This document shows, piece by piece, positions 3,832 to 37,224 of a stretch of DNA of 42,124 nucleotides. How positions within the stretch are numbered: the stretch's first letter is position 1; the number at the start of each line of letters is the position of its first letter. The position numbers and the translations under genes are program-made. The notes beneath the pieces are model-generated. The model was not told the DNA's origin, did no database searches, and saw only the letters and a list, made by a program, of their open reading frames with translations. Source of the DNA: an uncultured Phycisphaera sp. (GTDB taxonomy: Bacteria > Planctomycetota > Phycisphaerae > Phycisphaerales > UBA1924). Location of the stretch: assembly GCA_963977205.1 (NCBI GenBank), contig CAXBOF010000001.1:1-42124 (forward strand). The letters are read 5' to 3'.

Positions 3832-3857
3832 GCCGCGGTTTCCGCAAAGTATCGTCA

Positions 3858-4130
3858 ATGCGGGGAACGGGGCTTCTGGTCGCCTCCATTCTTGCCTCTT
3901 CAGTTTCACTCACGCACGGCAACCTCTGGTCGGGCGGTGTCTCGCTCGTCTTTGCGGCGCTTGTTCTCGAGCTTGCGCCTGAGCTGTCCCTGTCAGTCTC
4001 GCCTGCCCGACTGTCTGTGCTCCTAGAGGCGGTTGCGTCTGTGGTAGTTGTCGCAGCCGACGTCGACCACTACGCCGTGTTGGGTCTGGTGCTTGCGCTG
4101 GCATGTCTGGGGGGATCGAAGACCAAGTAA
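3858..4130 (+). CDS. Small hydrophobic ORF, 90 aa (possible membrane protein or leader exon of the next gene)
   Basis: ATG lies 26 nt downstream of the bidirectional TATA at 3825..3831. Three hydrophobic stretches, moderate GC3. Overlaps the ATG of the next gene by 28 nt. Confidence 0.3.
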   Translation: MRGTGLLVASILASSVSLTHGNLWSGGVSLVFAALVLELAPELSLSVSPARLSVLLEAVASVVVVAADVDHYAVLGLVLALACLGGSKTK

Positions 4131-5752
4131 AAGTGGTCCTCGGCGCTTTTGTGGAGAGTCCGCAGTATCGCCTTGCCGTCGAATCGTGGCAGCTTTCGAC
4201 GGTCGCGGGTGGCATCGATGTGGCCGACGGCTCGCCGGTTGATGTTCGCGGCGCAGCCGAATTGGTGCGTCACGCCCGATGTGCGGCGCCGGCTGCGTGC
4301 TGACCCTTTCCAGGTGCACTCGATGGTGCGGCAGCTGGTGCTGATGGGCTTTTGTGTGATTCAGGACGGCGTGGTGGACCCGATGGCCGCCATCTCGTGG
4401 GACAAGCAGAAGCGCGAGTGGGTTGCCCCAGTCAAGGACGAGGCTGAACCGCCCACCGTCTGCGTCTTCATGGCGCCGCTTGTGCATTCGAATGGCACTA
4501 CGCTCATGTCGTACGGCAGCGCCGCGCTGCCGGTGTGGTACCACCTGTCGGCCCTCACCGAAAATATGCGGCGGCGGGATGCGTTCAACTCGGCGCACAC
4601 CGTGTTCACCTCGGTCAATCCGAGCATGACGCCCGGCGACTCGCTCACTCCGTCCTTCATTGCGGCGCGGGGGCGGGCCGTCGGGGCCGCCGATCCAGAT
4701 TATACCACGTCTGACCGCCGGCACGAGCTGCTCGGGGACCTGATGCGCCGGTCCAACGGGCTGCGGTCCCATGGCGATGTTTTTATGGCGGGCCAGGGAT
4801 TCCCGGTCGACTCGAGGGCACCCAAGCTCCACTCGGAGCATTTTGTCACCGACGGTAAGCACCAATTTATTTTGGTCCAATCGTGCACACGGCCGGCACC
4901 GAAATCTCGCGCCCCTCGTCTGAACTCCCAAATCATGCACACGGCCCGACACCCCCACCCCTGGTTGCCCGCAATCTTCTGCTCCTGTGTCGACCCCCAA
5001 ATCGTGCACACGCCCCGACACTGGACCCCGTTCGACTCCCAAATCGTGCACACGGCCCGACACCACTGATGGCTCTGCAGGGATGAGTTCGGTGGGCGAG
5101 GCGCGACACCTGCAGGCCCCCGTGTCGGACATGAACCGGCTGGTGAAGCACTACGTGCACTCGTTCTACCAGGCGCTCGGGGTACCGCCTCAAAAGCTCG
5201 GTGCGCCGACTCTTCCTTCCCGCGCCATCGCGCCTCTCACTGACTGTGTCGCCAGGTGAGAACGTCAACTCTGAACGCCTTGCGGGATCCGAGATGATTT
5301 CGAGCGAGGCGCTGTGGACTCACGAGGCTCGAGTGCGCGATGTCCGGGATGTTGTCAACGAAGCGCTTGAGGTTCTCGGCGTCTCGCTGCGGCCGTCGGT
5401 GCGATACCGCGTCCTGGTGCAGCATCCAGAGCTGTTTGATCCGGAGAAGTACACCGACCTGCTGGCGCACTCGCTCGGGGTGCCCACCGAGTACGTGGCC
5501 CAGATCCCGGTCGAGACGGATGAGTCGACCCAGCAGCAGCCACCCACGAACGGCCGTCGGGGTGGCAATGACCACGATGCCGCCATGCAGCAAGGATCGG
5601 GGTCCCACAAACGCTGTCGCGACGGGAAGTTCTGCCAGAACAAACGGGGGGGGCCCGTGAGCGACATCCGCACTATTAGAGAACCCCATGCCAAGTTGGA
5701 TAGGGGCGAGACGCGCGTTCCGGAGGAGAAGAAGGGCCGCAATTCGGAATGA
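4103..5752 (+). CDS. Portal-like protein (tentative), 4 exons join(4103..4264,4314..4854,5081..5200,5256..5752), 439 aa
   Basis: Frames 2 -> 0 -> 1 -> 2 are linked in phase by three GT..AG introns. The spliced peptide ...VKHYVHSFYQALGVPPQKLG|GENVNSERLAGSEM... resembles the conserved ..a.GvPp.llG...sN.. segment of HK97-type phage portal proteins (recalled, not searched). The gene model is more certain than the function. Confidence 0.6.
4265..4313 (+). other. Intron, 49 nt (portal-like gene)
   Basis: GTGCGT...CTGACcctttCCAG, phase 0, frame 2 -> 0. Confidence 0.75.
4855..5080 (+). other. Intron, 226 nt, carrying four copies of a 25-nt motif (portal-like gene)
   Basis: GTAAGC...CACTGATggctctgCAG, phase 1, frame 0 -> 1. 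The only long intron in the window. Confidence 0.75.
4877..5063. repeat. Four dispersed copies of a ~25-nt motif CCCAAATCGTGCACACGGCCCGACAC inside one intron
   Basis: Copies at 4877..4900, 4927..4952, 4996..5021 and 5038..5063, with 1-3 mismatches each. Start-to-start spacings are 50, 69 and 42 nt. Confidence 0.85.
5201..5255 (+). other. Intron, 55 nt (portal-like gene)
   Basis: GTGCGC...CACTGACtgtgtcgCCAG, phase 1, frame 1 -> 2. Splits the GVPPQKLG|GENVNSE motif. Confidence 0.8.
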
Positions 5753-6681
5753 TGGACGAACGGGATGGCACCATCGTGTATGACAATGCGCTCACCGTAG
5801 ACGGCCAGCCAATGTACCACTACGCCGAGAGCGATGCGGACGGGTACATCGATCCGAGCGAATACGAGCAGCCGTTGTCCCGCGAGGCGTTCCACGAGCA
5901 CCATGCCCCCGAGGACCGATCCATTCCGGTGGTGGACGCCTCGCCCGAGACGCCGGAACGGTACCCGGCTCCGCCACGCCGTTTCTCGGCCGTTCCTGAA
6001 TCCTGGAATCCTCGCCCCGATCCTCCGCCCAAGCCTCCGCCAATCGAATCGATGCCACGGCGCCGGTCGGGACGGAGCCCACTCGTCGGCGCTGTGGGCC
6101 TGCTGGGCCTGGTGGGGTTGATCGGCATGGTGCCGTCGGACGACTCTGGTCCGGGCACTTCGGCCTCGACTGGCGCCTCGTGCCTCGTGGGATCGATCGC
6201 GTGGTCTGCTGCCCAGACGGTTCCTGCGGGGTACCGAATCGCCGACGGGTCTGAAATTGTCGAGGAGGACCACCCGGCCCTCTTTGCCGCCGTGGGGTCG
6301 GCAGTGCCCGATTTGGTGGGCCGGTACGCCCGTGGGGGCCTCGAGCCCGGTGCCGTCCTCGCCGCCTCTGTGGATGTCGGCTCGTTCTCGGTGGCCATTG
6401 ACGATCCTGGTCACTCGCACGTTGACGCAGCGGGCTCGACGGTGCTCCGCGACGGCAAGTACGCTCTGGCGCACCTCTACACGTGAGACGGCCCGCCCGG
6501 CATCGCCCCGCCCCCTCTTATGCGTGCATGCAGGTTTACGACGGACGGGGTCAACCTCAAGGACGCCGGGCCATCTGTGGTTCCTGCGCAGACGGGGATT
6601 GCTGCGCGGGTAGAGGGCGGCACCGAGACACGGCCCGCCAGCGTCGTCCTGGTTCCCCTCATCTGCACCGGCGGTCCGTAG
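5749..6681 (+). CDS. Membrane-anchored phage tail-collar domain protein, join(5749..6482,6534..6681), 293 aa
   Basis: LVGSIAWSAAQTVPAGYRIADGSEIVEEDHPALFAAVGSAVPDLVGRYARGG fits the tail-collar pattern (G.I...a....P.Gw..cdG.......yP.Lf..iG...PDLrGrf..G). Exon 2 supplies ...VEGGTETRPASVVLVPLI, the ETRP......I end of that domain. TM segment LVGAVGLLGLVGLIGMV lies upstream. The ATG overlaps the upstream stop (ATGA). Confidence 0.8.
6483..6533 (+). other. Intron, 51 nt (tail-collar gene)
   Basis: GTGAGA...ATGCAG, phase 2. The apparent stop TGA 6484..6486 is part of the donor. Splicing restores the ETRP-containing domain end. Confidence 0.85.
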
Positions 6682-21425: not shown

Positions 21426-21461
21426 GGCCGTGTCCGTTTGTGCATTCCCCCTGGCAAAGTG

Positions 21462-21468
21462 TATATAT
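21462..21468. promoter_or_regulatory. Bidirectional TATA element (TATATAT)
   Basis: The only AT-rich element in the 69-nt divergent spacer. 26 nt from plus-strand ATG 21495 and 36 nt from minus-strand ATG 21425. Confidence 0.55.
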
Positions 21469-21494
21469 GCCGCGATATCTAGAGGCACTCGGGC

Positions 21495-24400
21495 ATGGCA
21501 GCCATCCTTGCGGCCGCGGCCGTTGCGGTCGACACTCAGCCGGGGCAGGCGTTGTACCTCGGACCCATGGTCAACCTCACTCTGAATGACGAAACGTGTC
21601 CTCCGATCGGCGACGGCGACGTCCTGATGCTGGACGAGGGCCTCATCGAGGAACAGCCGCGCGGCGACTATCTCGTCATCCCAAACGAGTGCGACACGAG
21701 CGGCTACTTCAGCGATCACTATCTCGACGCCAATATTGATTCGTGGCGGTGGCAGACGCAGGCGCTTGATCGGATTGCGTGCAACTGTCGGAACGATTAC
21801 CCGGCGTGGCTGACGCTGCGGGGTCCCGATGTTTCCAATCAGGGCATCTGCGACTCGTACGAGACGGCGTACGGATGGCTGTACGGCGAACCCTCCGAGA
21901 CGATCAAGTGGATGACGGTCCCGCCGCAGTACAACATCTCCATTCCCAACGGCTACAGCGGCCAGCAGTTTCAGAACCCCGACCCAAACTCCAAACGCAA
22001 AACGCTCATCTGCAACTCGACCAACATCATTCAAAAGGCCAACCAGTGCGTCCCGCGCCGCCGTGGTTCTCCTGACACGCCGCTGACTCTGCCGCAGATG
22101 CTTCCACAACAGCGAGTACGAGGAAATGCTGATCCCGATCAACCAGGGCATCCTGAACGAGACCGAGGCGCAGTGCCGGAACGAGTCCGAAGCCAACTAC
22201 GACTTTCAGATCGACTGCTGCGTCAACGCCACCATCGAGGGCGAAGATCCCGCCTGGTTTGTCAGACGGGACATTTTCTTTGCGGTGCCACCCTCTTTAT
22301 TTTTTGTGAACCCGGCCCAGCCTTTTCTGACTGCCGCTTTTAGGCGGGATGCGAGTCGACGACGCGGGCGCTGAACAATGGGGATGGGCGGTGAGTGTGT
22401 CGGGCCGTGTTCCTCTGCCGGCAGCCTGACGGCCCGCAGGTTCCACACGGGCGCCGAGCAGGGCTGGACCCGCGGCATGTTTTCCAAACTGGGCACCACG
22501 TCGACGCTCAACATTACCGAAACCATCAAGGCCCTCGTGGTGCCGAAGGCCTATGCCCCAGACAGTACACGGTCATCCGAAGACGGCCCGGGCTTCAATG
22601 GAGTCTGCATCCCCGACGACGCCGATCTGCCTTCCTCGCTGAACTACGAGCCGTATTCCCAGAAGACGGCGACGCCGGGCAGCAATACGGGTACCGAGCT
22701 CCACACCACGAGCATGGTGCCGCGCCGTCTGCGCACCTTTGGCGCCGGTTCCGCGCCGAACCCGCTGCACGGAAGTCCAAAGGCCGTCAAGCGATGGGCG
22801 CTGCATTTTCTCATCGGGTTCAACGAGACGCTGGCCGACACGCCTCCTCTGGGGACCTACTTCAATCCCGTTCACTATGCGCGCCAGTTTATTCAGGTGC
22901 GTGTGCGTCCCTGCGCCACCGTCCGCCGCCGTCTCATTCGCCTCAGGTCAACCCCGACGGACGCGTGTACGAGAGCGGCACCCACAATCTCACCGACAAC
23001 CTGCACATGCTGCCGTGGGTTCGGAACTATGCCTCCAGCCGCCGCGGCGTCAGTCCGGGCATTCTGTACAACGTGACCAAGGGGGCGTACATCGTCTCTG
23101 AGGGCCCTCCGGCATACAAGCTCGACGACTACTTCCGCATCTGTCCCAAGGCGAGCCGCCGCGCCACGGTCGCTGTGCCCCGCCATCTGACGGCACCGCA
23201 GGATTACTCTGAGGGCGCTGGGCACCCGCTGGTACAATCCTACCGCGCCGCCGTTCCGCCTGCAGTGGTCTGAGCCCGCCCGCAGGCATCGTACCAGTTT
23301 TTCGTGCAGCCGGGCACCGACGACTACTACTGGGAGCGGAATGACGAGGACGTGCTGGGGGACAAGGGGTTTGTGAAAAAGCTTTACCCGAAGGGCCCTT
23401 CGGACGCCAAGAACCAGTTTGCCCCCGACACTTCGACGCAGTACAACTGCGCCATCGAGGCGATTGACGGGCTTCCCTCGGGGTCGCCCTTTTGGAAGGC
23501 GCCGCCGCTCGAGACCAAAGGATGGGGATCGTTTGGCAAGGACCTCAACTTTCTGATCAACTGCACGTCGCTCACAGGAGGTGCGCCGCCGAATGACATG
23601 GTCGACTGGCCAAGCATCATCAAGGAGCTGGGCGGGTACAACAATGTGCCGACGGCCGGGAAGGTTGGCACCGAATCCGTGGCGGGCCGTGTGCCGATTC
23701 CACGCCAATCTCACGCGCCCGCAGGTGACGCCGCAGGTCCTCATCAACCAGAACAATACACTGACGGCCAACAATGTTTTCGAAGTCGTAACCAACGGAA
23801 GTGCTGCCGTGTTCTTTGTCACCTTTGGGGACGAGTCGACATCGAGCGAACAGAGCCCGCCGCCGATGACGAGGGCGACGTATACAAAGTGCTCCAACGC
23901 CGGTGCGTCGCAGGGCCCTCGGTCCCGAGGCTTTCTGATTCCCATCGAGACGCTCTTTGCGACGACTCTGACCAAGGGAGGGGGCCCCGAAATCAAACTG
24001 GCGCTTGCGTCCGGGCAGGGCGCTCGATCGGACGCCGCCGGCAGCATTGTGGCCGCCGTTGCTGCCGAGTATGGGTTTGTCGGGTCTGTGCACCCGGACC
24101 AGATGTACGGGGCTGCCTATGCCGTTCTGGGCATTGACGATTTTGTGGCGCACAACCACGCGGGCGCCGGCACCCTTTTCCCCGATCAGGCCGTGCTGGG
24201 CTCGCGACCGCGCATCGACGACCTTGTGGGCAACATGGACACGGAGGACACGGACATCCGAAAGTCGATGACGGGGTCATGCGGGCAGATCAACGACATG
24301 CCGGCGCCCGGCACCAGAACGGGGTTTCTGGCAGAAGGCGGAAAGGCGAGCAACCGCCGTGTTCAGCGGCACGGCGTGTGGAGACCCCAGTTTTGCTGCC

Positions 24401-27400
24401 GACGGGTCGTTCGGGAAGGATCAGTGGAACCATCTGGACTCTGTATTCTACCACCAGTTTGTGAATCAGTACAACCTCCCAGGCTTCCAGATGAGCCTGG
24501 CTGGCGGCGACGACGATATCAGCACGAAGATTCCGCGCCCGCCAAACGCCGTTCCCGAGCCGACCGCCTACAATTCGCAACTTAACGCCGAGAACGACTG
24601 CTGGGCCCACCTGAGCGTCGGGGGCTGCGGAAACAACGGCGCGTGGAGCGCCCTCCCCGACTGCGCCCGTGACTCATTTGGGTCTCCAGGGGGCGATTTC
24701 CACTGCTTTGGGGGCGCAGACGGCGGCAACTACGTCGCCGACAACCCGGCGTGTGATCCGCGACAGTACGGAATAGACCTAAATGGAGGCCAGAAGGGGT
24801 GCACCAATGCGCGGGCGCGCTTCAAGGCATCTTCGGACTACTCGGTGAGCCCTTCGTCTGGGTCTGCGGATGGCGGTGCTGACTGCAGCGGCGCAGGTGT
24901 GGCCCTTTGTGGGCACTGGAGACGTCAACTACTCAATCTCTGGGACTGCGTATGGAACGGCAGTGCCAACCGGGCTCTTTGTGAGCAACAGGTTCAACGT
25001 GGAGTACCTGCAAAGGGAGGACAGGTTCGCGGAATCTACCGACAATGATGCCACCGGTTCGGAGCCAATACCGACGCTGAATGAATTCCTGGCTGTGGCC
25101 GCAAAGCGGGGCGCGTCCAACCCGTACGCCGTCATCAAACAGCTGTACCCCCACATGGTCTTTCCAAACGACGATGGCAAGTACGCCACCAACCTGTCGT
25201 CCATGAACGCCTTTGAGAGCTGCCAGTGCTTTGCGGGCCCCCTCAACAGCGACGGGCTGCCAAACTATCAGGCGTACAGCGACTACAGTGGCGGCGATGC
25301 GTTGGCGAAGAGCGATGGGGATCGCGTCACCTGGGGATGCACTGCTCAGGGCCCCGGGGGTTCGGCGGTCATGGGGAACGCCCCAGACCACGAACGGTGT
25401 GCCCCGAAGCGCCAGGGCGGCCATACGACGTTATGGCGGTGCTCTGGGCGAAAGGGCGGTGGCCACAGCTGCTACACGACCCGTCGCCCACAGACTCCCG
25501 GGCCCTTTCCGCGGAACGCAAACTGGGCCGATGCAGACATTCTGCGGCAGGGAACCTCAACGCCACCGAGCATTTCCGACGACGACATTGTTGCCAAGTT
25601 CGGCGGGAGTGGTGTCAAGCCCCGATGGTGGACAAAGGCGCTCGACGGTCTCCCCGCCGTCCGGGCCGGCGTCCTGGCGCTCATTGACGAATCCATCTGG
25701 AAGAACCCGGAGAAATGGCTGTCGACCAAAACGGCGTTCAAGAAGCGCCTGTACCGTGTGTCCAACCCGGACATGACTGAATTCGGGTACGCGGATCTCG
25801 AGGCGTTTCTGGATGTCGGCATCCTGGACATTGGCGATGCCGAGGATACCATGTTCGTCGTCCCCAATCGCGCGGACGAGCAAGCCCTGTACGTGAGGAC
25901 CGAAACCCGAGACCTCTGCAACGATTTCGGCCGCACGGGCGATAACAACACGGACTGGGCGGCGCACACGCTGACGGACGACCTCTTCAGGGCCGTGACG
26001 ACCGGAACGCCCGTCGAGTACGCAACCGAGGACCCTGCGGCCTACTGGAACATGACGGGCGATGTCGCAGTCTGCGCTGGAAATCTGCACGGCATGCCCA
26101 GCAACATGCCCGGTGCGCGCCAAAGCCCAGCCCCCTCTGCGTCCCGTTCGCTGACGGCTCCGCAGGCGTGTGCGGCCCCATTCCTGCACTCGAGGCGGCG
26201 TCGGCTGCGAGCCGGAATCTCAACGATGTGCCGTGTTCCCGCACCGGCATCGAGCTCCCCGTGTGCGGCAATCCCAGTTTCAATACGCACGATAGGACGA
26301 TGCGGCCCATCCTGGAGGGGTCCCAGTACGCGCACTACTGCAGTCCCACGTCAGGGATCGAGGGGTACGTCAATAGGAGCGTCGGCACCAGTCCCACGCT
26401 GCTGCAGTGTTTTGACGACGTTCTGGTACGCGGGTCTCGCAGCGTCCGCGCGGCGCCTTCTGACCCCATTGCCGCAGACGCCCTCGGACCGCGCGCAGTT
26501 TTGCTTTGGCGGTGGGTACGCCGGACTTAGGGGACTCCAGATGCCAAAGACGCGCCCTGCATCCCGCGTGTGCGACTCGACCACCGTCAACGCCGAGGGC
26601 AGCAGCGGCACCAGCACGTGCCTCGCGTTTGCGGGAGACCCCATTTGGACGGTGCAAAAGGTGCTCGATCAGGGCGATTTGACCTTTCCGGACGCCAGCG
26701 GGTACGGCGTGATTGTCGTTCCGGTGCGGCACACGCAGCGCGCCTTAACATGCCGGGCACTGACGGCGCGCCCAGGTCAATTACAGCATTGTGCGCCGGC
26801 TGCCCATGACGCTGGCGTACGAGGACGTGACGGTCGCCAATCGGTTTCAGGGCTCCCAGGCGTCCGAGGTGCACGTCACGCGGCTCCCGGATGGGTTTCC
26901 GTTCAAGACTGTGCCGACAAAGCTTGTGAACCAAAAGTCCGTCCTCAAGACCGCCATGTGCGGCGCCGACTTTAAGAACATGAACGCCCCCCAATCGTCG
27001 GATCCCCTGGAACGGCTTGCCAAGGTGATTGAGGCGCTGTTGGCCACGGACGGGTTCTGCACCGTCAGTCCCACCGAGAGCGTGCCGTGCCGCGGGGGGT
27101 ACTGTGTGCCCTTTCTCGAGTCGCAGGGGTCGGTGGTCCACACCTCGTGCGTGACCGAGGCTGAGATGTTTCCCCCGATTGCGGATACGGCGATCGAGGT
27201 GAAGCGGGGCAACGTGACGCTCAATCCATCGACGGCGTTTCAGAGGCCACTGTACTTTGGGGGCGTCGGGGGCAACACTCCGACATCGTGCGTCCGGGTC
27301 ACGGTGGGCGGTGCCGCGTTCAGAATGAGCGACGTTGTCTTTGATCAGACGGGGTGCGAGAGCCTGGCCGTGGCCGACCGCATCCCGGTTCTGTACGGCG

Positions 27401-28869
27401 GCAACAGCGCGGCGGGATCGTACATCTCGGGCATCTCGGTCCTCGGAAAGCCCGCTCCGGCCGTGACGTACCTCGGCAATGCGGCCGATGGCGATGCTCC
27501 GTACCTGGTCATGTCCGAACCCGACACCGCCAGCGCATACCTCGGCGACGTGGGGTTTGTGTTTAAGGTGCCGGACGATCCCTCCGAGCCCATTGGACTG
27601 GTTGCATCGATGGCCCGCACCATCGGAACGCAGCGGATTGAGCAGTGCGCCCGGAGCGACTGTTCCACCATCCGAACCCGGTCAGCGTCCGATCGGTGCG
27701 CCGAAGCGGCAGTGTGCTCCCAGCGGGGCTGTCCGTGGGACCTCAAGGGCCCGGGGTGCACGGACGACCCCGACGGGCCGTGTTTTCCCTTTTGCACCGT
27801 GGTGCTGACCAAGTGGGGAATCGGGTGTGCCAGGGGGTTCTCAAACGCAACCTTCCGGTACGCCATTGCGGCCGATACCGAGACGCAGCACGTGCCACAG
27901 ACCGGCGCCACGTACTCGGGCATTTCGATAGTGTCCGTGGCCGTGACGCCCGACACCCAGAGCTGCATCCTCAGCCGACCGCCGCTGCGCAACGAGACGT
28001 GCGCCCCCGACGATCCAAATCAGCAGTGGCTCATTGACGAGTCTTCCGGCGTTTCCCGGCTGCATCCAGTCCATCGGCCCTTTACGTGCATGATGATGTG
28101 GGGCGACCCCGACATTACCATCTCGGACGAATACGACAACGCCACCATCGGGTTCTTTCCGTGTCCGCCGTGCGACGTGGGCGTCGAAGAGACGGTCGAT
28201 GTGTGCGACGGGACTGCCCCCACGTACGAAGAGGCCGTGTGGTACGATACGCCCCCATACGAGACGCTGCCGATTCCAGTCTCGTACGACGACCACATCG
28301 TCGTGGCCGCCTTCCCCAACGGCAGCTGCCTGCTTCATTCGGGAGACGTGTGGGCCGACTGCCGCACCGAGTGCATCCGGGACGTTCCGGCCGAGATGTG
28401 CAACGGGACGGACGTGAAACCGGCCGGGGGACTGCTGCAGGCGTGCCGGCACGACGGATCTGTGGCCGCCATTGTCCGCCGGCAGTGCACCACGGGCGGC
28501 CCGATTGTACAGCCGCCGTCCGGATCGGGCGCCAGCGCCTCGTGCTTCCAGGGCTACTATCACATCTCGGCACACGGCCGCGGATACGTGTCGGGCGCGG
28601 CGACCATCAACGGCGTTTCCGTCACCATCTTCACATCGCAGGCCGTCATACAGCCCTACGACGAGTCTGCGGCCGTTGTGGGCGTCGGCGTGGACGTCTT
28701 TAACATTTCGGCAGTCACGGCCCTCTTTGGGCAAGCGTTCGAGCGCAATCTGTATCCGAGCAACAAGAGCACCGCCATCTACCTGGTGGCCGCCGTGGTG
28801 GCCTTTGCCCTCGGCATCATCATGCTCGTGATGGCCATGGTCAAACTCGCAAAGTCAAAGCAGGACTAG
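21495..28869 (+). CDS. Giant Cys-rich type I membrane glycoprotein, 13 exons, about 2248 aa: join(21495..22045,22098..22284,22344..22390,22440..22896,22947..23150,23202..23231,23286..23663,23725..24323,24367..24844,24897..26112,26166..26425,26478..26723,26776..28869)
   Basis: The coding signal hops between all three frames at 12 GT(GC)..AG introns, and every junction is phase-consistent. N-terminal signal-like MAAILAAAAVAV. About 27 N-x-S/T sequons counted by eye, many Cys. C-terminal TM IYLVAAVVAFALGIIMLVMAMV followed by KLAKSKQD. The junction near 24324..24390 and the GC-AG intron 23151..23201 are unresolved. Confidence 0.8.
22046..22097 (+). other. Intron 1 of giant glycoprotein gene, 52 nt
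   Basis: GTGCGT...CTGACtctgccgCAG, phase 2, frame 0 -> 1. Confidence 0.8.
22285..22343 (+). other. Intron 2, 59 nt
   Basis: GTGCCA...CTGACtgccgcttTTAG, phase 0. Followed by a 47-nt exon. Confidence 0.6.
22391..22439 (+). other. Intron 3, 49 nt
   Basis: GTGAGT...CCTGACggcccgCAG, phase 2. Confidence 0.7.
22897..22946 (+). other. Intron 4, 50 nt
   Basis: GTGCGT...CTCATtcgcctCAG, phase 0, frame 1 -> 0. Confidence 0.8.
23151..23201 (+). other. Possible GC-AG intron 5, 51 nt, in-frame and retainable
   Basis: AAG|GCGAGC...CTGACggcaccgCAG. Retention would insert ASRRATVAVPRHLTAPQ. No GT donor fits the phase. Confidence 0.35.
23232..23285 (+). other. Intron 6, 54 nt (follows a 30-nt exon)
   Basis: GTACAA...CTGAGcccgcccgCAG, phase 0. 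Contains the in-frame stop 23271..23273, so it must be removed. Confidence 0.7.
23664..23724 (+). other. Intron 7, 61 nt
   Basis: AAG|GTTGGC...CTCACgcgcccgCAG, phase 0, frame 0 -> 1. Confidence 0.6.
24324..24390 (+). other. Intron 8, boundaries unresolved (43 nt to acceptor 24366, or 67 nt to 24390)
   Basis: A frame 1 -> 2 switch is required somewhere in 24272..24390. Only donor GTTTCT at 24324 is phase-compatible with either CAG. No CTGAC motif is present. Confidence 0.3.
24845..24896 (+). other. Intron 9, 52 nt
   Basis: GTGAGC...CTGACtgcagcggcgCAG, phase 0, frame 2 -> 0. Confidence 0.85.
26113..26165 (+). other. Intron 10, 53 nt
   Basis: GTGCGC...CTGACggctccgCAG, phase 1, frame 0 -> 2. 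Confidence 0.85.
26426..26477 (+). other. Intron 11, 52 nt
   Basis: GTACGC...CTGACcccattgccgCAG, phase 0, frame 2 -> 0. Confidence 0.85.
26724..26775 (+). other. Intron 12, 52 nt
   Basis: GTGCGG...CTGACggcgcgccCAG, phase 0, frame 0 -> 1. Confidence 0.85.
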
Positions 28870-28912
28870 TGCCAATGCAATCCCGCTACATTACCGGCGC
28901 TCGAGGCACCGC

Positions 28913-29801
28913 CTACCCAAAGAGGAACCACGCCAGTGCGAGTACTCCGGCCGAGACTGCGAAAAACTCGAATGCCGTGTACATGAGGTCCTTGGAGGCT
29001 CCGGTGTCGGTGACGCCCTCGTAAAAGCGCGTCTCGTACGCCCGGCCAAAGAGCCCGCCCGTGTACCGGTCCACGGAAAACACGGTGCCCGCATCGCCCG
29101 TTGGGGCCTTGGCGTCCTGGTACACGGCAATGGTTTCCGACCCATTGGCCACCCACTCGTCCTCGCAGGCGGCGACTGCAACAAGCGAGTTTACGGCACT
29201 CAGGCCGGCGCACCGCACGCTGAGCCGATCCACGGGGGGGATGATGACGGCGTACGCGCCCCGGACGTTGACGAGCTCGAGGCCGACGCCCACCAGTGGT
29301 CCGAATTCACCGACGCGCACGTTCTCGATGTGCACATTGGGCCCCGTCACCTGCGGTGGATCAGTACCGCGGCTGTACGGGTGCGGCGTGTGCGCGGAAC
29401 TGCCGTCATGTTCTGCACGGTACACTTGTTCGTTCCGATGAGCCACGAGCCCGTCGCCAGCGTCACGTTCACCATGGCTCCGTCGCACCAGTACTCTTTT
29501 GACCCAAGCGTATCCGTGACCGAATCTCCGTCGCCTGTGGGCCCGTCGGTCAGCACGAGGCGCACAGTCCCGAGTCCGCGTGCCCACCGTATGTGATGCC
29601 GGTCGATGCGTTTGCGACCGTTATGGCCACAAAGCTGTCGGGTGCCACGGCCACAATGTCGGTCGTGTCGACGCATCCGCGCCCCCCGGGGACTGCAGGC
29701 GGCCTGCACGTTCCATCCCAGAAGCAGACGCTGGTGGCAAGGCTGACGACGATTGTACCGACCCCCGGACTCACCGAAGTTGTGCATTCGGGAAACCGCA
29801 T
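28913..29801 (-). CDS. Type I membrane glycoprotein, complement(join(28913..29350,29401..29534,29588..29801)), 261 aa
   Basis: Three minus-strand frames are joined in phase by 53-nt (GTGGGC..CTGAC..CAG) and 50-nt (GTTCCG..CTGAT..CAG) introns. Sequons NAS, NVT, NMT, NGS. C-terminal TM FFAVSAGVLALAWFLF. ATG lies 28 nt from the shared TATA at 29830..29836. Confidence 0.7.
29351..29400 (-). other. Intron, 50 nt (minus strand)
   Basis: Minus-strand GTTCCG...CTGATccaccgCAG, phase 0. Confidence 0.75.
29535..29587 (-). other. Intron, 53 nt (minus strand)
   Basis: Minus-strand GTGGGC...CTGACcgacgggcccaCAG, phase 1. Confidence 0.75.
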
Positions 29802-31141: not shown

Positions 31142-32448
31142 ATGGAAAAGAAGACGTACATCATCTCATGGAACGCCATCGCGGCGGCGATCCACTTTGG
31201 CGTCGCAGGATTCGTAATCTCGGAGGTCGCCGGCGGCGCTTTCCGGGTGCCAGTGCATCCGCTGACGCTCGCTCCAGGTGTACCAGCATCCGTGGGAGGC
31301 CCCCTTTGTCGTCCAGTATTCCCAGTGGAATCAGACGGGCGATGAGCGGTGCTCGGCCGAATCCCAGTGCCTCATCGCGCAAGCCTCGGTGCGCAAAACG
31401 CGTCTGCCAGGGCGCGCCCGTCCTGACTGGACCACTTCCGCAGATTGACTGGGGCACGGCCAATGTCGGCATGATCGTGGGTCGGATGCCCTGCCGCCAG
31501 CCCGCCCGCCCTGACGCGCTGCAGGTGCCATTCTTCAGCGTCATCTCCGGGGCCCATCATGCCGCCGTCGCCGTGTGGGTCGGTTGGGAGGGGGTCGATG
31601 CCTACCTCAAAATGGCCAAACGGGGCAACTGGCTGCGGGCAGTTGACTATGCACTCTCGTCGTCCCTGATGCTCGTCGTCACATCCATCCTGTTTCGGTC
31701 GCCGCCCGACGTGCCAACCCTGATGCTCGTGGCTGCAGTCCAGAGCGCCATCATCCTCATCGGGTACCTCCTCGAACGACTCCAGTACCGCCAGACCACT
31801 ACGGAGGAAAGGCAACCGCTTTTATCGGGCCAGGGAGACGACATCTCTACAGTGGACACTGCTGCGATTCAAGGCGATTTGACCGCGGATACGACGTCCG
31901 GGAAGCAGGCCTTTGGCGTGTGGATCCCGTTTGCGGCGTCGATGCTGATTTACGCTTTGGTGTGGACCAGCCTCCTGATCCCTTTTCACTACGCGGTGGA
32001 AGATGCGCCGACGGCGGTGGTGATTTTCATTGCGAGTCTTGCGGCACCCGGTGCGCGGCGAGGTCTGACTGTGGCCGCTGCAGGTCTACCTGGTGGCGAC
32101 GTTCACGCTCTTCCCGATCGTGTTTGTGTTTGGGGCGCCGGGACTGGGTCGCGAGACGGGCTTTCTGATTCTGAGCATGCTTGCCAAGGTGGGCAGTCCT
32201 GTGGCGGCACTGCGGCGACATTGCACGCTGACCGCGGCGCCCAGGTTCCGCTTCTGATGCTCTTTTACTTTGGGATTGTGGCGCGGTCGGGGACGGTTGT
32301 GTTCGAACGGCTGGAGGGTGCATTCAACACGACCGGCTCGTCCTCGTCCGCCAGCGACACCGAACTGTACATCGCGTTCGGCGCCTCTATTGCCGTCGTG
32401 ACCATCGTGGCCATCCTGATGTGGGGGACCAGGCCGAACCGAAAGTAG
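31142..32448 (+). CDS. Heliorhodopsin, 6 exons join(31142..31225,31278..31388,31444..31476,31525..32040,32084..32188,32245..32448), about 350 aa
   Basis: The spliced product aligns by eye with heliorhodopsin 48C12 (recalled from memory). AIHFGVAG matches GVFHLLQ. SGAHHAAV matches SALFHFIV. NWLRAVDYALSSSLMLVV matches NIFRWVEYSLSSSVMIVL, with Asp at the counterion position. RETGFLILSMLAK matches GERAYIVLSLVAK, the Schiff-base Lys (codon 32186..32188). That lysine exon is in a different frame from the long track ORF. The junction at 32017..32083 is unresolved. Confidence 0.85.
31226..31277 (+). other. Heliorhodopsin intron 1, 52 nt
   Basis: GTCGCC...CTGACgctcgctcCAG, phase 0, frame 2 -> 0. Confidence 0.7.
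31389..31443 (+). other. Heliorhodopsin intron 2, 55 nt
   Basis: GTGCGC...CTGACtggaccacttccgCAG, phase 0, frame 0 -> 1. Confidence 0.75.
31477..31524 (+). other. Heliorhodopsin intron 3, 48 nt, in-frame and retainable
   Basis: GTGGGT...CTGACgcgctgCAG, phase 0. Removal deletes VGRMPCRQPARPDALQ and gives VGMIVPFFSVISGAHH, which aligns with the heliorhodopsin TM2 region. Confidence 0.65.
32041..32083 (+). other. Heliorhodopsin intron 4, donor unresolved (GC-AG 43 nt shown; GT donors at 32017 or 32020 are alternatives)
   Basis: Acceptor CTGACtgtggccgctgCAG at 32083 is required to enter the frame encoding the lysine exon. Only phase-0 donors work. The consensus-looking GTGCGC at 32051 is out of phase. 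Confidence 0.3.
32189..32244 (+). other. Heliorhodopsin intron 5, 56 nt
   Basis: AAG|GTGGGC...CTGACcgcggcgccCAG, phase 0, immediately after the Schiff-base Lys codon. Returns to frame 1. Confidence 0.85.
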
Positions 32449-33532: not shown

Positions 33533-33712
33533 GCAGAATTGTGACCCGGTTCGATTTCTGGGTTCACGATGCGGATTCGCGGTCTTCTGCAAACCGGGCA
33601 CAGCAGCCCGATCGTCCGGTCCCGCCCTAAGGTCGGCGCAATCCTGGCGAATGTCCAAAACCGGCCCAGATGTCAAATCTGGAATTCGAACCCGCCACAA
33701 TTTCAGTCTGCC

Positions 33713-34438
33713 ATGGAAGTAACCCCGCAGATGCTGTTCGAGGAGTCTGGCCTTGACGAGGGACAGCACGGCCCCCTGCTGCCGGCGCGGTGCAAGAGGA
33801 GCGCTTCCGAGTTCGATGCCGAGGCCGAACCCGAAGGGGGTGCTGCTGCCGAGGTCGGGACCGACGTGTACACGAACCGGGTCATCGCCGAGGTCGAGAC
33901 GGACTCTCCAGAGACGACGCTTGACCGGCGAATGGAGCAGCTTGCCGCTGCCGACGCGCAGCACGCAGCAGAGGCACACAAGAATCTTGACGAAGAGCAC
34001 ACGGAGCGGAGGAGGGCCGCTCATAAGGGACTGGACAAGGACCTGCTGGTGATTGCGCAGAGTCCTGGGCCGGAGATGAGCGGCAGGCTGCAGAAGCGGA
34101 TCCGGGAGGCTGACGAAGAGGAGCGAGAGGACGATCGGAAGCTGGCCATCGGAAAGGCCGCCATTGCCCATGCGCAGGGACGGATGCCGGATTGGCCCAC
34201 CGTGGCGAACCTTTTGCGCTGCCCCGTGCTCATGCAGAACACGGCGGATCCGGTCAGGCTCACATGCGGGCATACGGTGGACAGGGGCGTCGCTCGAGAG
34301 CTGTACGCCGCGTCGGAGGGGGTCTTTCCGTGCCCCGTCTGCAGGACGCCGAACAAAAGGCCAATCGCAAAGACGGGCGCCCGGAGGGATCCGCTGCTCG
34401 CGAGGCTGGTACGGGCGCTGGTGGGGAATGCGGTGTAG
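33713..34438 (+). CDS. U-box/RING-like E3 ligase-type protein, 241 aa
   Basis: C-terminal LLRCPVLMQNTADPVRLTCGHTVDRGVARELYAASEGVFPCPVCRTP carries the CP..M.DPV...CGHT U-box/SP-RING-type signature ending in CPxC. The N-terminal half is acidic and coiled-coil-like. Confidence 0.7.
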   Translation: MEVTPQMLFEESGLDEGQHGPLLPARCKRSASEFDAEAEPEGGAAAEVGTDVYTNRVIAEVETDSPETTLDRRMEQLAAADAQHAAEAHKNLDEEHTERRRAAHKGLDKDLLVIAQSPGPEMSGRLQKRIREADEEEREDDRKLAIGKAAIAHAQGRMPDWPTVANLLRCPVLMQNTADPVRLTCGHTVDRGVARELYAASEGVFPCPVCRTPNKRPIAKTGARRDPLLARLVRALVGNAV

Positions 34439-34581: not shown

Positions 34582-35940
34582 TCAGTCCGTCTCTACGACG
34601 GCGGTGATGCCGGGCCCGACTGTAAAGAGCTCGCGCCTGGTGGCACGCTGGGCGGCGACGAGGAAGTGCGTCTTCCGGATGCTTCCGTTTCCGACGACGT
34701 GAACGCCTGCTGGGGCCGTCATGCCCTGAGCCATGTCGATGGTGAAGCCGCCTGTGGGAGTTTAGCGGGCGCGCGCCCACATCCGCGCGGGCCTGGAAAT
34801 ACCGTGCCGGATGGGAACCACAAAGTGGCCTTCGAGCTCGAGGGGCTGCAGCGACACCTCTTCGCCAGTGCTGAGGATCGTGACGACGACGATGGCGTTT
34901 TCACCCATGACGACCGAGTCGGCCTCGATCTCTTCGCCGTCCTCGGAGATGACGCGCTCAAATCGGATGTCAGTCCCGTTGGTGAGCAGCGTCCCCCTTT
35001 CGGTGGCCCTGGCCTTGGTGTCAATGTCGACGCAGCCGTAGACGAGCCAGCCCTTGGTGTGGCCGCCCACAAAGCGCCCATCTTCGGCGTCCTTGCCGCG
35101 CTCCTTGGGGATGGTTTCGGGGTCGCTGGGGAGCAGCAGGATGCCCTCTCTGTCATTCTCGCGGAACTGCCGCACTGCTTCCCGCACATCCTCCCTGATC
35201 TGCCCGAGGATCAGAGCCCCCTCTGGCGGAACGGCAGCCCGACGCTGCCGGACAAGCTGATCCGCCAGCCCGCCCGGGATTTGCCATTCCTGGAGCTCGC
35301 TGAGGACGCGCTTCCAGTCGGGGTCCGTGTACCGCCGCGACTCTTTCAGCTCGATCGGGGGCGCCCTGCGCAGCAGAGGATGCGTGGATGCGGGCTTTCC
35401 ACCCCTCGGCTTGATCTGGCCCTCGTCGCCCACAAACAGGACGCGGACGCCGCCAAACGGCATCGACCTCGCCCGAAAGGTGCACCTCAGGATGGCATCC
35501 AGCTTGGCAATCTCGGCCGATGTCCACAGGCCAAACTCTTCGACGACAAGGATCTTTGGCGTCCCGGCGGGCGTATTGTACCACGGCTTTGATTTGGCAG
35601 TGCCGAGGGGAACCTTTGCCCACCATTTGGCGTCGATGGCGATCTTGGCCCACACGACGGCTTCTGGTGGGTAGCTGCCCCGCGGAACGGCGAGCCCGGC
35701 AATCGTCTGCCGGTGCTGCCCCAGCGACTTGTGGCTGATGGCAGTCACCATCACGCGGCAGCCGGCGTTTACCCAGCATCTGAGGACGTCTGCCACGACG
35801 ACGGACTTGCCAGTTCCGGCTTTCCCTATGAGCAGCACAACGCGGTGCGCCTCGAATAAGTCGCCGATCTGATCCGCTGCGGCCCTTTGCTCGCCCGACA
35901 GCACGGGGGGAGCCTGCGGAGTGGATTCGCGCCCGTCCAT
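34582..35940 (-). CDS. Pif1/RecD-like SF1 helicase, complement(join(34582..34751,34803..35940)), 435 aa
   Basis: Walker A LLIGKAGTGKSVV, motif II KILVVEEFG, MPFGGVRVLFVGDEGQIKP. Removing a 51-nt GTATTT..CTAAAC..CAG intron (phase 1) adds GFTIDMAQGMT...HFLVAAQRATRRELFTV, the C-terminal conserved motifs of this helicase type. Confidence 0.85.
34752..34802 (-). other. Intron, 51 nt (SF1 helicase gene, minus strand)
   Basis: Minus-strand GTATTT...CTAAACtcccaCAG, phase 1. Removes stop 34762..34764 and restores the helicase C-terminal motifs. Confidence 0.85.
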
Positions 35941-36093
35941 GTGCTCTGGCGGGGGAGACGCTTCAGCCGACGCGGGAAATTCTGGGCCCTCTGGATGTGA
36001 AAACTGCCAGGTAGCAGGCTTTTGATTTCAGAAACTGTGCATACATGCGGGCCTGCAAAAGTGTCAGAACTGCAGAGGCGCCGCGGCCGTCGT

Positions 36094-36447
36094 TTAGGGC
36101 ACCTGCGCTGCCCCCGTCTTTGGAGTGTCCTTCTTGACCTCGACGACGACCGAGTGCCCGGGCACGGCGATTAGCAGGTCTGCCCGCCCGGTTCCACAAT
36201 GGACGGGTCCATCAGCGCCGATCGGGGTGTACATGATGGGACAGGGCGCCTCGCGGGTCACCGAGACTCCGGGGAGCATGTGGCGGACCTCGGCGGCAAG
36301 GGCGGTGGAGATCCACTCTTCCCGGCAGGGGTAATCCTTGAAGGCGCGGGCGACGCGCCAGGCGCTGGCCTTGACGGCCCACTCGACGCGGGCAATCCAC
36401 GCATCAGTTCCTTCGTGCCCGCCCCGACCGAGTCCTGCCGCCGCCAT
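36094..36447 (-). CDS. PD-(D/E)XK (VRR-NUC-like) nuclease, 117 aa
   Basis: ...GTGRADLLIAVPGHSVVVEVKKD is a D..(n)..E.K nuclease-core pattern. I start at ATG 36447 (MAAAGLG...), 36 nt downstream of a TATAAT. The upstream part of the 420-aa track ORF is Arg-rich shadow sequence. Confidence 0.5.
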   Translation of the reverse strand: MAAAGLGRGGHEGTDAWIARVEWAVKASAWRVARAFKDYPCREEWISTALAAEVRHMLPGVSVTREAPCPIMYTPIGADGPVHCGTGRADLLIAVPGHSVVVEVKKDTPKTGAAQVP

Positions 36448-36483
36448 GGTCGCTTCGTCGTGCAGGAGGAACCCCCGGGTCAT

Positions 36484-36489
36484 TATAAT
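36484..36489. promoter_or_regulatory. TATA element (TATAAT, near-palindromic TTATAA)
   Basis: 36 nt from minus-strand ATG 36447 and 87 nt from plus-strand ATG 36577. Confidence 0.4.
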
Positions 36490-36576
36490 GTCGACGACGG
36501 GGTTGGCGCCCCAAACAACGACGCCGAGAGCCGCCCGACCAGTCCGTTGGATGCGCCGTTTCTGGGCCAAATCGAA

Positions 36577-37224
36577 ATGGCGATTGTCGACCGTGTCACC
36601 AAACTCTCGGGCGATCCAATGGCCGATCTGTTCGCGGAGAAATCGGTGGCGGCATCGGTCCAGTCGGTCGTCCGGCAGTCGACTACGGCCGCAGGCACGC
36701 TGCGGAGGAACCCAAACATCACGTACGGGCAGGGCACCCTGACCAGGCTTTGCCACGGCGTCCCGATGGTGACGGTGGGCGTCGAGGCAGTGGCGTCTGG
36801 GCACAAGTATGGCGGTCCGACGGTCGTCGTCCAGTGCAACGCCGACGGCATGAAATCGGGCGTGACGGCTGCCCGGATTGTCGAGTCGGCAGGAATCAAC
36901 TTTGGTGGCTGGGTGTGCGTCGTGTGGTGTCCGCCGCATCGCCGTGCAGCAGTCCTCGCTGCGCCGGTGGGGTCGGGGGACGAGCTCTACTACCTCGTGT
37001 GCCTCTGCAACATGGCCGCCAACGGAGCCATCTCGGTCGGCGCCAACGTCGAGGCCGCCATGACATCGGTCGCAGGCCACGGGGGGCCCACCGGCATTCA
37101 TCCCGTCTACGGAAGGCAGGATTCCCCATTCTACAAGTGGTACCGGACGCTGACTCCGCGCCCCAATGGCTGGAGGACGTCGGCCGGCGCCCGCATCACC
37201 GTCGTCGGAGGATCTCCCGAGTAA
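36577..37224 (+). CDS. Hypothetical protein, 215 aa
   Basis: High-GC3 frame from ATG 36577 ([19 protein letters not shown]...). No motif recognised. The N-terminus could be extended by an unrecognised exon. Confidence 0.55.

Follow-up and report, generated by a model that had tools for sequence, protein, structure and literature searches.

Mirusviruses are abundant ocean viruses that are known almost only from metagenomes, and their capsid module links them to herpesviruses. To our knowledge, neither their attachment to host cells nor their entry has been characterized. In the sole cultured mirusvirus system, the particles look enveloped, acquire an envelope-like layer, and have no envelope proteins assigned to them (PMC12606086). 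Mirusvirus genes contain up to 50 introns each with CTGAC/CYSAC branch points, at GC contents of 25–72%; intron positions vary between close relatives, virion genes are 14-fold enriched in introns, and the core functions of the Mirusviricota include heliorhodopsin, a C3HC4 RING finger, and Snf7 (PMC12768974). The Ariadnavirales and Manovirales, other nucleus-dependent giant viruses, have no introns. Here, we analyzed the 42,124-nt contig CAXBOF010000001.1 (the window) and, in particular, the region 21495–28869, which is predicted from its sequence to be one gene with 13 exons and 12 introns. Its product is a predicted type I membrane protein with a signal-like N-terminus and a putative glycoprotein. 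On balance, we regard it as probable that this is a single spliceosomal-intron-rich gene of a marine virus resembling the intron-rich mirusviruses (Okeanovirales/Styxvirales type) and that it encodes a type I glycoprotein of about 2,255 residues, for which we propose a function in envelope attachment.

The locus resembles the intron-rich Mirusviricota (PMC12768974) in its marine metagenomic origin and high GC content, in its many short GT-AG introns of the spliceosomal type, which carry branch sites like CTGAC and differ in position between close relatives, and in the adjoining heliorhodopsin and RING-finger genes, most of the neighboring open reading frames (ORFs) having no known domain. Unlike the introns of the Mirusviricota, whose lengths have a mode of about 80 bp, those of this gene are 49–61 nt long, and two of them have GC donors. 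The intron density of 1.6 per kb is about eight times the Mirusviricota order average. The emphasis of the same study is on the introns of capsid and terminase genes; no membrane glycoprotein is mentioned there, and the words "envelope," "glycoprotein," and "transmembrane" have zero occurrences in it.

To define the gene model, three genomes were compared junction by junction: the window, an NCBI contig (GCA_035092405.1; L001), and an ENA metagenome contig (L002), with GT/GC-AG candidates enumerated in the latter two. The protein identity between the window and L001/L002 was about 64%. The G+C content of the window was 64%, so long spurious ORFs are common in it. A frame plot of the G+C content at the third codon position (GC3) indicated unbroken + strand coding between 21495 and 28866, the frame changing about 12 times, and the top-scoring frame of each piece in the comparison with L001 and L002 agreed with this plot. 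The whole locus was present in L001 and L002 in the same order, with the pieces being 45–78% identical. L001 and L002 spliced to intact ORFs of 2,250 and 2,246 aa, respectively, and the coding sequence (CDS) of the window after intron removal was free of stop codons except for the effect of the 29-nt deletion described below. Furthermore, a 2,162-aa homolog (P0044), encoded by a single uninterrupted ORF, matched positions 16–2231 of the 2,236 profile positions. The GC3 plot, the colinearity with L001 and L002, and the single ORF of P0044 bear out the original prediction of a single gene with 13 exons, which had been made from the letters of the window. The product of exon 13 was 62–96% identical to P0001–P0003, and for the last ORF (26791–28866), a search of 5.8 billion proteins gave just three close clusters, from L001, L002, and the Logan contig L003. 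The related contigs were all from marine metagenomes, Tara included, and scans of IMG/VR with the protein and with an alignment found no relatives.

The 12 introns comprised ten GT-AG and two GC-AG introns, and CTGAC was located 10–14 nt from the acceptor in eight of them. Eight intron positions were common to the window, L001, and L002. Introns 2, 3, 4, and 9 were found only in the window clade, L001 and L002 being uninterrupted there, and their removal restored exact colinearity (e.g., DIFFA/AGCESTTRALNNGDGR/FHTGAEQ versus DIFFAAACESTTRAVNNADGRYHTGAEQ); one intron was private to L002. The locus thus shows intron gain or loss between close viral relatives (four window-only introns and one L002-only intron), together with GT-to-GC donor changes. 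Each of the two GC-AG introns (5 and 8) has exactly 51 nt, keeps the frame, and contains no stop, and its retention would thus be tolerated; retention of intron 5 would add 17 aa, and its GC donor is taken here to be spliced. L002 has an obligatory GC donor at intron 6. GC-AG donors recur in this gene lineage (23151 and 24639 in the window; 1951 in L002), and they may reflect relaxed splicing or exonization in progress. Intron 12 of L001 (8097–8217) is 121 nt long and reads (LT)n and (NP)n in two frames, apparently a short tandem repeat; the 52-nt intron 12 of the window is without this repeat.

Four closer relatives were also compared: a Logan contig (L003), L004 (96% identical to the window), L006 (93% identical), and a Tara contig (L008; 98.8% identical over window positions 23755–27322). 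Between the window and L006, the most divergent of the close relatives spanning the introns, the introns differed at 12.5% of positions and the third codon positions at 7.6%, and the intron indels were 1, 1, 3, and 1 nt, which points to weaker constraint on the introns than on the exons. For L003, L004, and L008, intron divergence was not above that of position 3. In all four contigs, position 3 differed about twofold or more relative to positions 1 and 2, and exon indels were multiples of 3 or summed to one, the 29-nt deletion being the exception. The stretch around 25380–25560 looked odd; it proved to be in frame and conserved, and the possibility that it is out of frame was rejected.

Upstream of the gene, TATATA was found 27 nt before the ATG, one of only two occurrences in the whole window. 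The arrangement GTATATATG...ATCTAGAGGCAC precedes the ATG in L001 and L002 too, and TCTAGAGGCAC had one exact match in the window, at 21478–21488. This TATA-like element is a putative promoter. It lies in the 69-nt gap to the gene ending at 21425, which had been predicted to be transcribed divergently from a shared TATA.

The window copy differs from its relatives in one respect. L001 and L002 read EGGK..PLNSADGICAVFSG in one frame across 24355/24356, and L008, with an extra 29 nt at this site, reads EGGKASNLPLNSADGICAVFSG, which agrees with both. The frame switch in the window is not an intron: the conserved flanks on its two sides are just 10 nt apart. As given, the spliced CDS of the window has 6,739 nt, no multiple of 3, and meets a stop (24583–24585) after 904 codons. 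Insertion of the 29 nt gave 6,768 nt and 2,255 aa with no stop, and the protein figures below refer to this repaired product. Cryptic GT/GC-AG introns that would restore the frame are numerous by chance (e.g., 24376–24424, 49 nt; 24346–24424, 79 nt). A cryptic intron was rejected as the default, since none of the candidates has the GTG(C/A)G donor and CTGAC..CGCAG end of this gene and all of them delete conserved residues. The product of about 2,250 aa that had been predicted from the joined pieces is therefore intact in L001 and L002, whereas the window needs 29 nt restored, a deletion that the prediction had overlooked. Frameshifts or stops had been named there as signs of a decayed locus; the deletion leaves this copy broken or mis-assembled, and the rest of the gene is intact.

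There is an appreciable chance, though short of an even one, that the window copy is a true pseudogene, i.e., that the deletion is real and inactivating, as in a decaying integrated or endogenous mirusvirus or a defective strain. This would concern the copy only and not the family. The given sequence shows the deletion unambiguously, it takes out conserved residues including the invariant Cys838, no intron-like solution with the typical splice signals of the gene exists at the site, and decaying endogenous viral elements are mentioned in PMC12768974. If the deletion is real, only a 904-residue N-terminal fragment without the anchor is possible. However, no other damage was found in the gene, and the 6.7 kb of spliced sequence had no stops once repaired. 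Most of the downstream differences from the 93–99% identical relatives were at third codon positions, and the remaining exon indels were multiples of 3. No disruption was noticed in the stretches of neighboring genes overlapped by L003 and L004, the frames of which were unchecked, and a mis-assembly or minority variant would equally give a single 29-nt gap. Judged from the sequences, the window copy would represent a null allele or population variant of very recent origin, or else an error of the assembly. Separately, a 25-nt patch at 25406–25430 was heavily substituted relative to L008 with a net 3-nt, in-frame indel, the two sequences being about 99.7% identical elsewhere; this part of the ectodomain may be locally hypervariable or recombined.

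The repaired protein contains 69 Cys residues, and 69 of 69 Cys columns were invariant among the window, L001, and L002 proteins (64% identical). It has 27 N-x-S/T sequons versus 15.8 ± 3.6 in shuffled sequences (3 standard deviations above), 20 of which are conserved. These counts agree with the Cys-rich, heavily sequon-decorated protein of the original prediction, and hydropathy and the tail KLAKSKQD likewise agree with its signal-like N-terminus, single C-terminal transmembrane (TM) helix, and 8-residue tail. All 10 members that are apparently N-terminally complete have a short hydrophobic N-terminus (the window, L001, L002, P0044, P0008, P0013, P0020, P0021, P0023, and P0031). The TM helix was the only strongly hydrophobic segment, with 19-residue windows starting at residues 2222–2234 scoring 1.9–2.9; the other hydropathy windows above 1.6 start at 2190–2192, in the stem, and score 1.7–1.9.

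The tail is conserved, with the ending ...KSKQD in the window and ...KRKQE/D in L001 and L002. Across the family, about 10 of about 30 lineages have KKxx or KxKxx. Dilysine signals bind COPI and retrieve type I membrane proteins to the endoplasmic reticulum (ER), and by analogy the tail may have an ER-retrieval function. The short cytosolic tail with K-x-K-x-x at the exact C-terminus resembles those of adenovirus E3-19K, foamy virus Env, and coronavirus spike. In contrast to that group, the motif is absent in about two-thirds of the family lineages, and a function of the motif in protist hosts is presumed by analogy. The predicted protein is also comparable to herpesvirus gB, gH/gL, and gp350/BLLF1, which are type I and heavily glycosylated, and the expected roles are attachment and fusion; herpesviruses, like mirusviruses, are a nucleus-replicating lineage with an HK97-type capsid. 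Unlike the herpesvirus glycoproteins, this protein is two to three times larger and has a dilysine tail. It had no Pfam or PDB sequence match over its full length to herpesvirus glycoprotein families, and none of these families was among the top 50 Foldseek matches of residues 1392–2255.

When 1.84 billion representative sequences were scanned by HMMER using the alignment of the last exon, 36 clusters were obtained. The family includes proteins of 1,100–2,900 aa with matching C-termini, among them P0044 and P0008 (2,070 aa), all annotated as metagenomic "hypothetical proteins." The jackhmmer searches delineated module A, an optional Cys-rich module B (residues ~1936–2170), the stem, and the TM helix, and the N-terminal ~1,400 residues were conserved in closer relatives only. 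The core motif of module A is C.RF.V...F.....FDQ..C.......P.VF.G. (A5 consensus). The family consensus of the stem is QP....V.N.S..T..FG.A.E (A3; stem hidden Markov model [HMM]), and its sequon at N2201 and predicted helix are conserved family-wide. Pfam searches with the exon pieces, the full spliced proteins, and the distant homologs gave nothing above threshold. PDB sequence searches with the last exon, the full-length 3-sequence profile, and the 31-sequence C-terminal profile gave only TM-helix noise or chance matches, and a 5-sequence N-terminal profile gave nothing beyond chance matches. Self-BLAST detected no internal repeats in the protein. Taken together, the sequences define what appears to be an undescribed but widespread family with no match to a curated family, and the mirusvirus literature that we searched does not describe one like it. 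The earlier statement that no family was recognized thus stands for curated families; a wide uncharacterized family of 36 clusters nevertheless exists. It would be a new family among viral type I envelope-type glycoproteins, and the gene structure agrees with that of intron-rich mirusviruses. Module A and the stem motif provide HMM-ready markers for such genes elsewhere.

Convergent with the large gene lies a conserved 224-aa ORF (28916–29587, − strand) ending ...FSVDRYTGGLFGRAYETRFYEG...TM, which resembles the VFNISAVTALFGQAFERNLY...TM of the large protein. The similarity to the stem and TM helix was weak (BLASTP E = 0.018; stem HMM E = 0.011, the second-best ORF of the window), and the ORF may be a small paralog sharing the anchor module.

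The region containing the DPNQQW element gave a consistent signal. With the A4 profile (17 sequences, residues 1925–2095), 18 of 18 PDB matches were ricin-type lectin domains; the best E-values were 7.8e-4 for ebulin B, 2.4e-3 for abrin B, and 7e-3 for ricin B, and RCA and mistletoe-lectin B chains, GalNAc-transferase lectin domains, and Vibrio cholerae cytolysin were also matched. Sub-threshold Pfam ricin matches were found at the homologous place in P0010 and P0022, and the A4 alignment showed one clear QQW and two weaker C-L / W units. The region has the C-L...l.l..C....Q-x-W....g..C-L pattern of the ricin, abrin, and ebulin B chains and GalNAc-transferase lectin domains (PF00652) at residues ~1950–2090. 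Unlike R-type lectins, it has sub-threshold scores, extra cysteines (a PC.PC motif), insertions, and one clear QxW, and it occupies a membrane-close site in a 2,255-residue viral protein. A QxW-like element had been predicted here, and its lying in a region whose profile matches only ricin-type lectins in PDB is in keeping with that. An R-type lectin-like domain at residues ~1950–2090 is a reasonable but not conclusive assignment. The presence of a QxW in a region that matches only ricin-type beta-trefoil lectins favors an attachment role.

The gene most likely comes from a marine mirusvirus-like virus. Downstream of it are a kinase-like ORF, a heliorhodopsin gene, a RING-finger gene, and a PIF1/AAA_30 helicase gene. 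The order of the large gene, the kinase-like ORF, heliorhodopsin, and PIF1 was common to contigs at no more than 60% identity, L001 and L002 included; heliorhodopsin also follows the distant homolog P0004 on a 139-kb contig, and Snf7 and PIF1 adjoin the gene of the distant family member P0051. The nearby heliorhodopsin, RING finger, and PIF1, the Snf7 on the contig of a distant relative, and the intron richness together point to an intron-rich mirusvirus. The viral setting that had been proposed for the gene gains from this heliorhodopsin and PIF1 context and from the intron richness. Pfam found no domain in most of the approximately 40 ORFs of the window, and TBP, histones, and Snf2, further core accessory functions of the Mirusviricota, were not seen in it.

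The likeliest role of the product would be that of an envelope attachment glycoprotein routed via the ER. A signal peptide would direct it into the ER, where disulfide bonding and N-glycosylation would take place, and the dilysine tail would keep it in ER or nuclear-envelope membranes. Capsids assembled in the nucleus would then collect the protein on acquiring their envelope. Attachment of the virion would occur by binding of host-surface glycans to the lectin-like domain and the variable N-terminal region, and the conserved module A, stem, and TM helix may serve in membrane anchoring, oligomerization, or fusion. With a large conserved type I glycoprotein, a lectin-like domain, an anchor module in at least 36 clusters, and synteny with heliorhodopsin, the family is a concrete candidate for mirusvirus attachment. 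More tentatively, and with the odds somewhat against so full a statement, the family as a whole may be the conserved envelope attachment/fusion glycoprotein of intron-rich mirusviruses, unrelated to herpesvirus gB/gH and delivered to the envelope by ER retention. Its N-terminal region, which varies, would then bind the receptor and be followed by a beta-rich module of a novel kind, an R-type lectin domain, and a conserved glycosylated stem and anchor. If this is true, the phylum Mirusviricota would gain its first candidate for an entry machinery.

Several observations weigh against the proposed attachment role and the virus assignment. Splicing, expression, glycosylation, and virion location are all things that we infer. 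The HK97 capsid protein, triplex, portal, and terminase were not found by Pfam in the ~40 ORFs of the window or in the visible flanks, a weak negative because the window is a 42-kb piece of an expected genome of at least ~265 kb and because Pfam may miss mirusvirus versions; the mirusvirus assignment is indirect, since no capsid, portal, or terminase gene was seen. The RING match was below the Pfam cut-off. The E-values of the ricin matches were borderline (7.8e-4 to 1e-2), and the Pfam score of 17.7 bits versus the gathering threshold of 29 bits was obtained in P0010 and not in the window protein. A Foldseek search of the model of residues 1392–2255 against PDB and BFVD gave no match with E < 0.1, the best being 0.28–0.6. 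The frameshifted window copy may make just a 904-residue secreted fragment without an anchor. Finally, the dilysine motif is absent from many family members, and where present it would be equally expected of a protein that stays in the ER and does not enter the virion.

An alternative is that the product is an ER, nuclear-envelope, or host-surface glycoprotein acting in the infected cell and not a virion attachment protein, which we consider rather unlikely. Its possible roles include remodeling of glycans or the secretory pathway, a block of superinfection, and retention of host factors as by the KKXX tail of adenovirus E3-19K. The recurrence of the KxKxx/KKxx tail in the family fits this explanation, the lectin-like domain could bind glycoproteins of the ER lumen, and incorporation into virions is hypothetical. 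However, it is well established that envelope proteins of ER-budding viruses, such as foamy virus Env and coronavirus S, bear such signals too. In addition, the 1.6 introns per kb, versus an order average of 0.2, match the reported enrichment in virion/late genes, and receptor-binding envelope proteins are typically built like this one, with a very large, variable ectodomain at the N-terminus and a conserved anchor module.

It is improbable that the product is a membrane-anchored enzyme degrading polysaccharides or cell walls, with module A as a right-handed beta-helix depolymerase of the phage-tailspike kind and the lectin targeting the substrate. The Foldseek comparison used a structure model of residues 1392–2255. 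The AlphaFold2 (AF2) model of the last exon with a 4-sequence alignment was unusable (pLDDT 28). That of residues 1392–2255 with a 31-sequence alignment reached a pLDDT of 70.9 and a pTM of 0.69 and was beta-rich, with a stem helix (model positions 812–826, i.e., protein residues 2203–2217) and a TM helix. Module A was modeled at a pLDDT of ~90 as strand-rich, with a long run of many short strands, which would be comparable to the right-handed beta-helices of tailspikes and pectate lyases. The top Foldseek matches, all non-significant, were beta-trefoils and right-handed beta-helices. The top PDB match was HA33, with several FGF and lectin trefoils lower (E ≥ 0.6); many others were tailspikes, pectate/alginate/fucoidan lyases, and adenovirus LH3, and lectins are commonly paired with enzymes. 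However, all the tailspike and lyase matches had E-values of 0.8–5 and probabilities of ≤0.15, the module A (A5) profile found no beta-helix protein in PDB, none of the 31 members matched a Pfam beta-helix or pectate-lyase family, and no catalytic motif was identified. The beta-helix-like stretch of the original prediction (27298–27447, in module A) thus gained no support from Pfam or PDB profiles and only non-significant matches from Foldseek, and a beta-helix in module A is unproven.

It is very unlikely that the locus is cellular and belongs to a marine picoeukaryote of high GC content, in which it might encode, for example, a scale protein or a surface adhesin. The spliceosomal introns, the TATA-like element, and the dilysine signal would suit such a gene, as would the lack of an IMG/VR relative and of a viral hallmark gene in the window. 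On the other hand, nearly all neighboring ORFs are without a Pfam domain, and the intergenic gaps are very short (~70 nt to the divergent neighbor and ~45 nt to the convergent one). The conservation of gene order across contigs at ≤60% identity, the match of Snf7, PIF1, and heliorhodopsin to the mirusvirus core set, and the finding of only three close-relative clusters among 5.8 billion proteins also argue for the viral origin.

That the locus holds several independent small genes and not one mRNA, as the 5–8 ORFs given by prokaryotic gene callers in L001 and L002 might suggest, is effectively refuted, since P0044 and P0008 carry the same-order segments in one uninterrupted ORF, conservation reaches the GT/AG boundaries and extends upstream of any start (VNYSIVRRLPM before the first Met of the last ORF), and introns of one clade are exactly absent in another. 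The locus is also an example of how genes of this kind come to be split up in public databases by prokaryotic gene callers. The coordinates of the features are given in Table 1.

Table 1. Features of the gene at 21495–28869 and its surroundings (window coordinates; residues of the repaired product)
Feature	Coordinates	Strand	Description
Upstream element	21460..21488	+	GTATATATG (TATA-like), then ATCTAGAGGCAC; 27 nt before ATG; 69-nt gap shared with divergent gene ending at 21425
Exon 1	21495..22045	+	Start codon; signal-like peptide MAAILAAAAVAV (21495–21530); 69% identical to L001 over 186 aa; start conserved in L001, L002, P0044, P0008
Intron 1	22046..22097	+	52 nt, GTGCGT..CGCAG; position common with L001, L002
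Exon 2	22098..22284	+	L001/L002 comparison
Intron 2	22285..22343	+	59 nt, GTGCCA..TTTTAG; window only; removal gives DIFFA/AGCESTTRALNNGDGR, colinear with L001 DIFFAAACESTTRAVNNADGR
Exon 3	22344..22390	+	47 nt
Intron 3	22391..22439	+	49 nt, GTGAGT..CGCAG; window only
Exon 4	22440..22896	+	L001/L002 comparison
Intron 4	22897..22946	+	50 nt, GTGCGT..CCTCAG; window only; removal gives QFIQ/VNPDGRVYES versus unbroken L001 QFIAVNLDGRVYES
Exon 5	22947..23150	+	L001/L002 comparison
Intron 5	23151..23201	+	51 nt, GC-AG, donor GCGAGC, in frame, no stop; obligatory GT-AG introns at this position in L001/L002
Exon 6	23202..23231	+	30-nt micro-exon, DYSEGAGHPL; DYAEGAGHPM / DYSEGAGHPM between two introns in L001 / L002
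Intron 6	23232..23285	+	54 nt, GTACAA..CGCAG, in-frame stop inside; position common; GC donor in L002
Exon 7	23286..23663	+	L001/L002 comparison
Intron 7	23664..23724	+	61 nt; position common with L001, L002
Exon 8	23725..24638	+	Holds frameshift site
29-nt deletion site	24355..24356	+	L008 has TCCCCCTCAATTCGGCCGATGGCATCTGC here; f0 to f1 shift; blastn of L008 versus window
Intron 8	24639..24689	+	51 nt, GC-AG, donor GCGCGT, in frame, no stop; position common, obligatory in L001/L002; GTGCGT in L006
Exon 9	24690..24844	+	L001/L002 comparison
Intron 9	24845..24896	+	52 nt, GTGAGC..GCGCAG; window clade only; removal gives SDYS/VWPFVG versus L001 SDYSVWPFIS
Exon 10	24897..26112	+	53% identical to L001 over 430 aa
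Intron 10	26113..26165	+	53 nt; position common with L001, L002
Exon 11	26166..26425	+	78% identical to L001
Intron 11	26426..26477	+	52 nt; position common with L001, L002
Exon 12	26478..26723	+	L001/L002 comparison
Intron 12	26724..26775	+	52 nt; position common with L001, L002
Exon 13	26776..28869	+	Stop codon 28867–28869; begins VNYSIVRRLPM, upstream of the ORF's own starts; conservation reaches acceptor in L001/L002
Module A	26303..27681	+	Residues ~1436–1860 (~420), spans introns 11 and 12; family-wide (jackhmmer envelopes)
R-type lectin-like region	27949..28371	+	Residues ~1950–2090; Q-Q-W at 28021–28029; opens module B
Membrane-proximal stem	28627..28764	+	Residues ~2176–2221; QPYD....VFN-I-S..T.LFG.AFE
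Predicted TM helix	28774..28842	+	Residues 2225–2247; helix 831–863 in AF2 model
Predicted cytoplasmic tail	28843..28866	+	KLAKSKQD (8 residues); last five, K-S-K-Q-D, fit KxKxx dilysine ER-retrieval pattern
Heliorhodopsin	31168-32445	+	Pfam, 40.1 bits versus cut-off of 26.7
RING-finger protein	33545-34435	+	Pfam, 20.2 versus cut-off of 30
PIF1/AAA_30 helicase	34765-36027	-	Pfam

Some minor observations were made elsewhere in the window. ARAGORN called a 97-nt tRNA-Ala(CGC) at 36292–36388 (− strand), inside the ORF 36175–37221, and no Rfam tRNA was found there at the gathering threshold; the length of 97 nt implies an intron or a false positive. For the ORF 913–1995 (− strand), the match to cytochrome bd oxidase subunit II fell below the threshold (26 bits versus 35.6), and the product is probably just a multi-pass membrane protein. 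The ORF 5704–6483 (+ strand) matched the phage tail collar domain (PF07484) with 24.0 bits (E = 3.8e-5), a score equal to the gathering threshold. Compared with the window, L004 contained a 1.2-kb insertion (3838–5042) at 28900/28904, about 30 nt past the stop codon of the large gene. This insertion includes a 276-aa ORF that appears ankyrin-like by eye only, and it represents strain-level variation in gene content.

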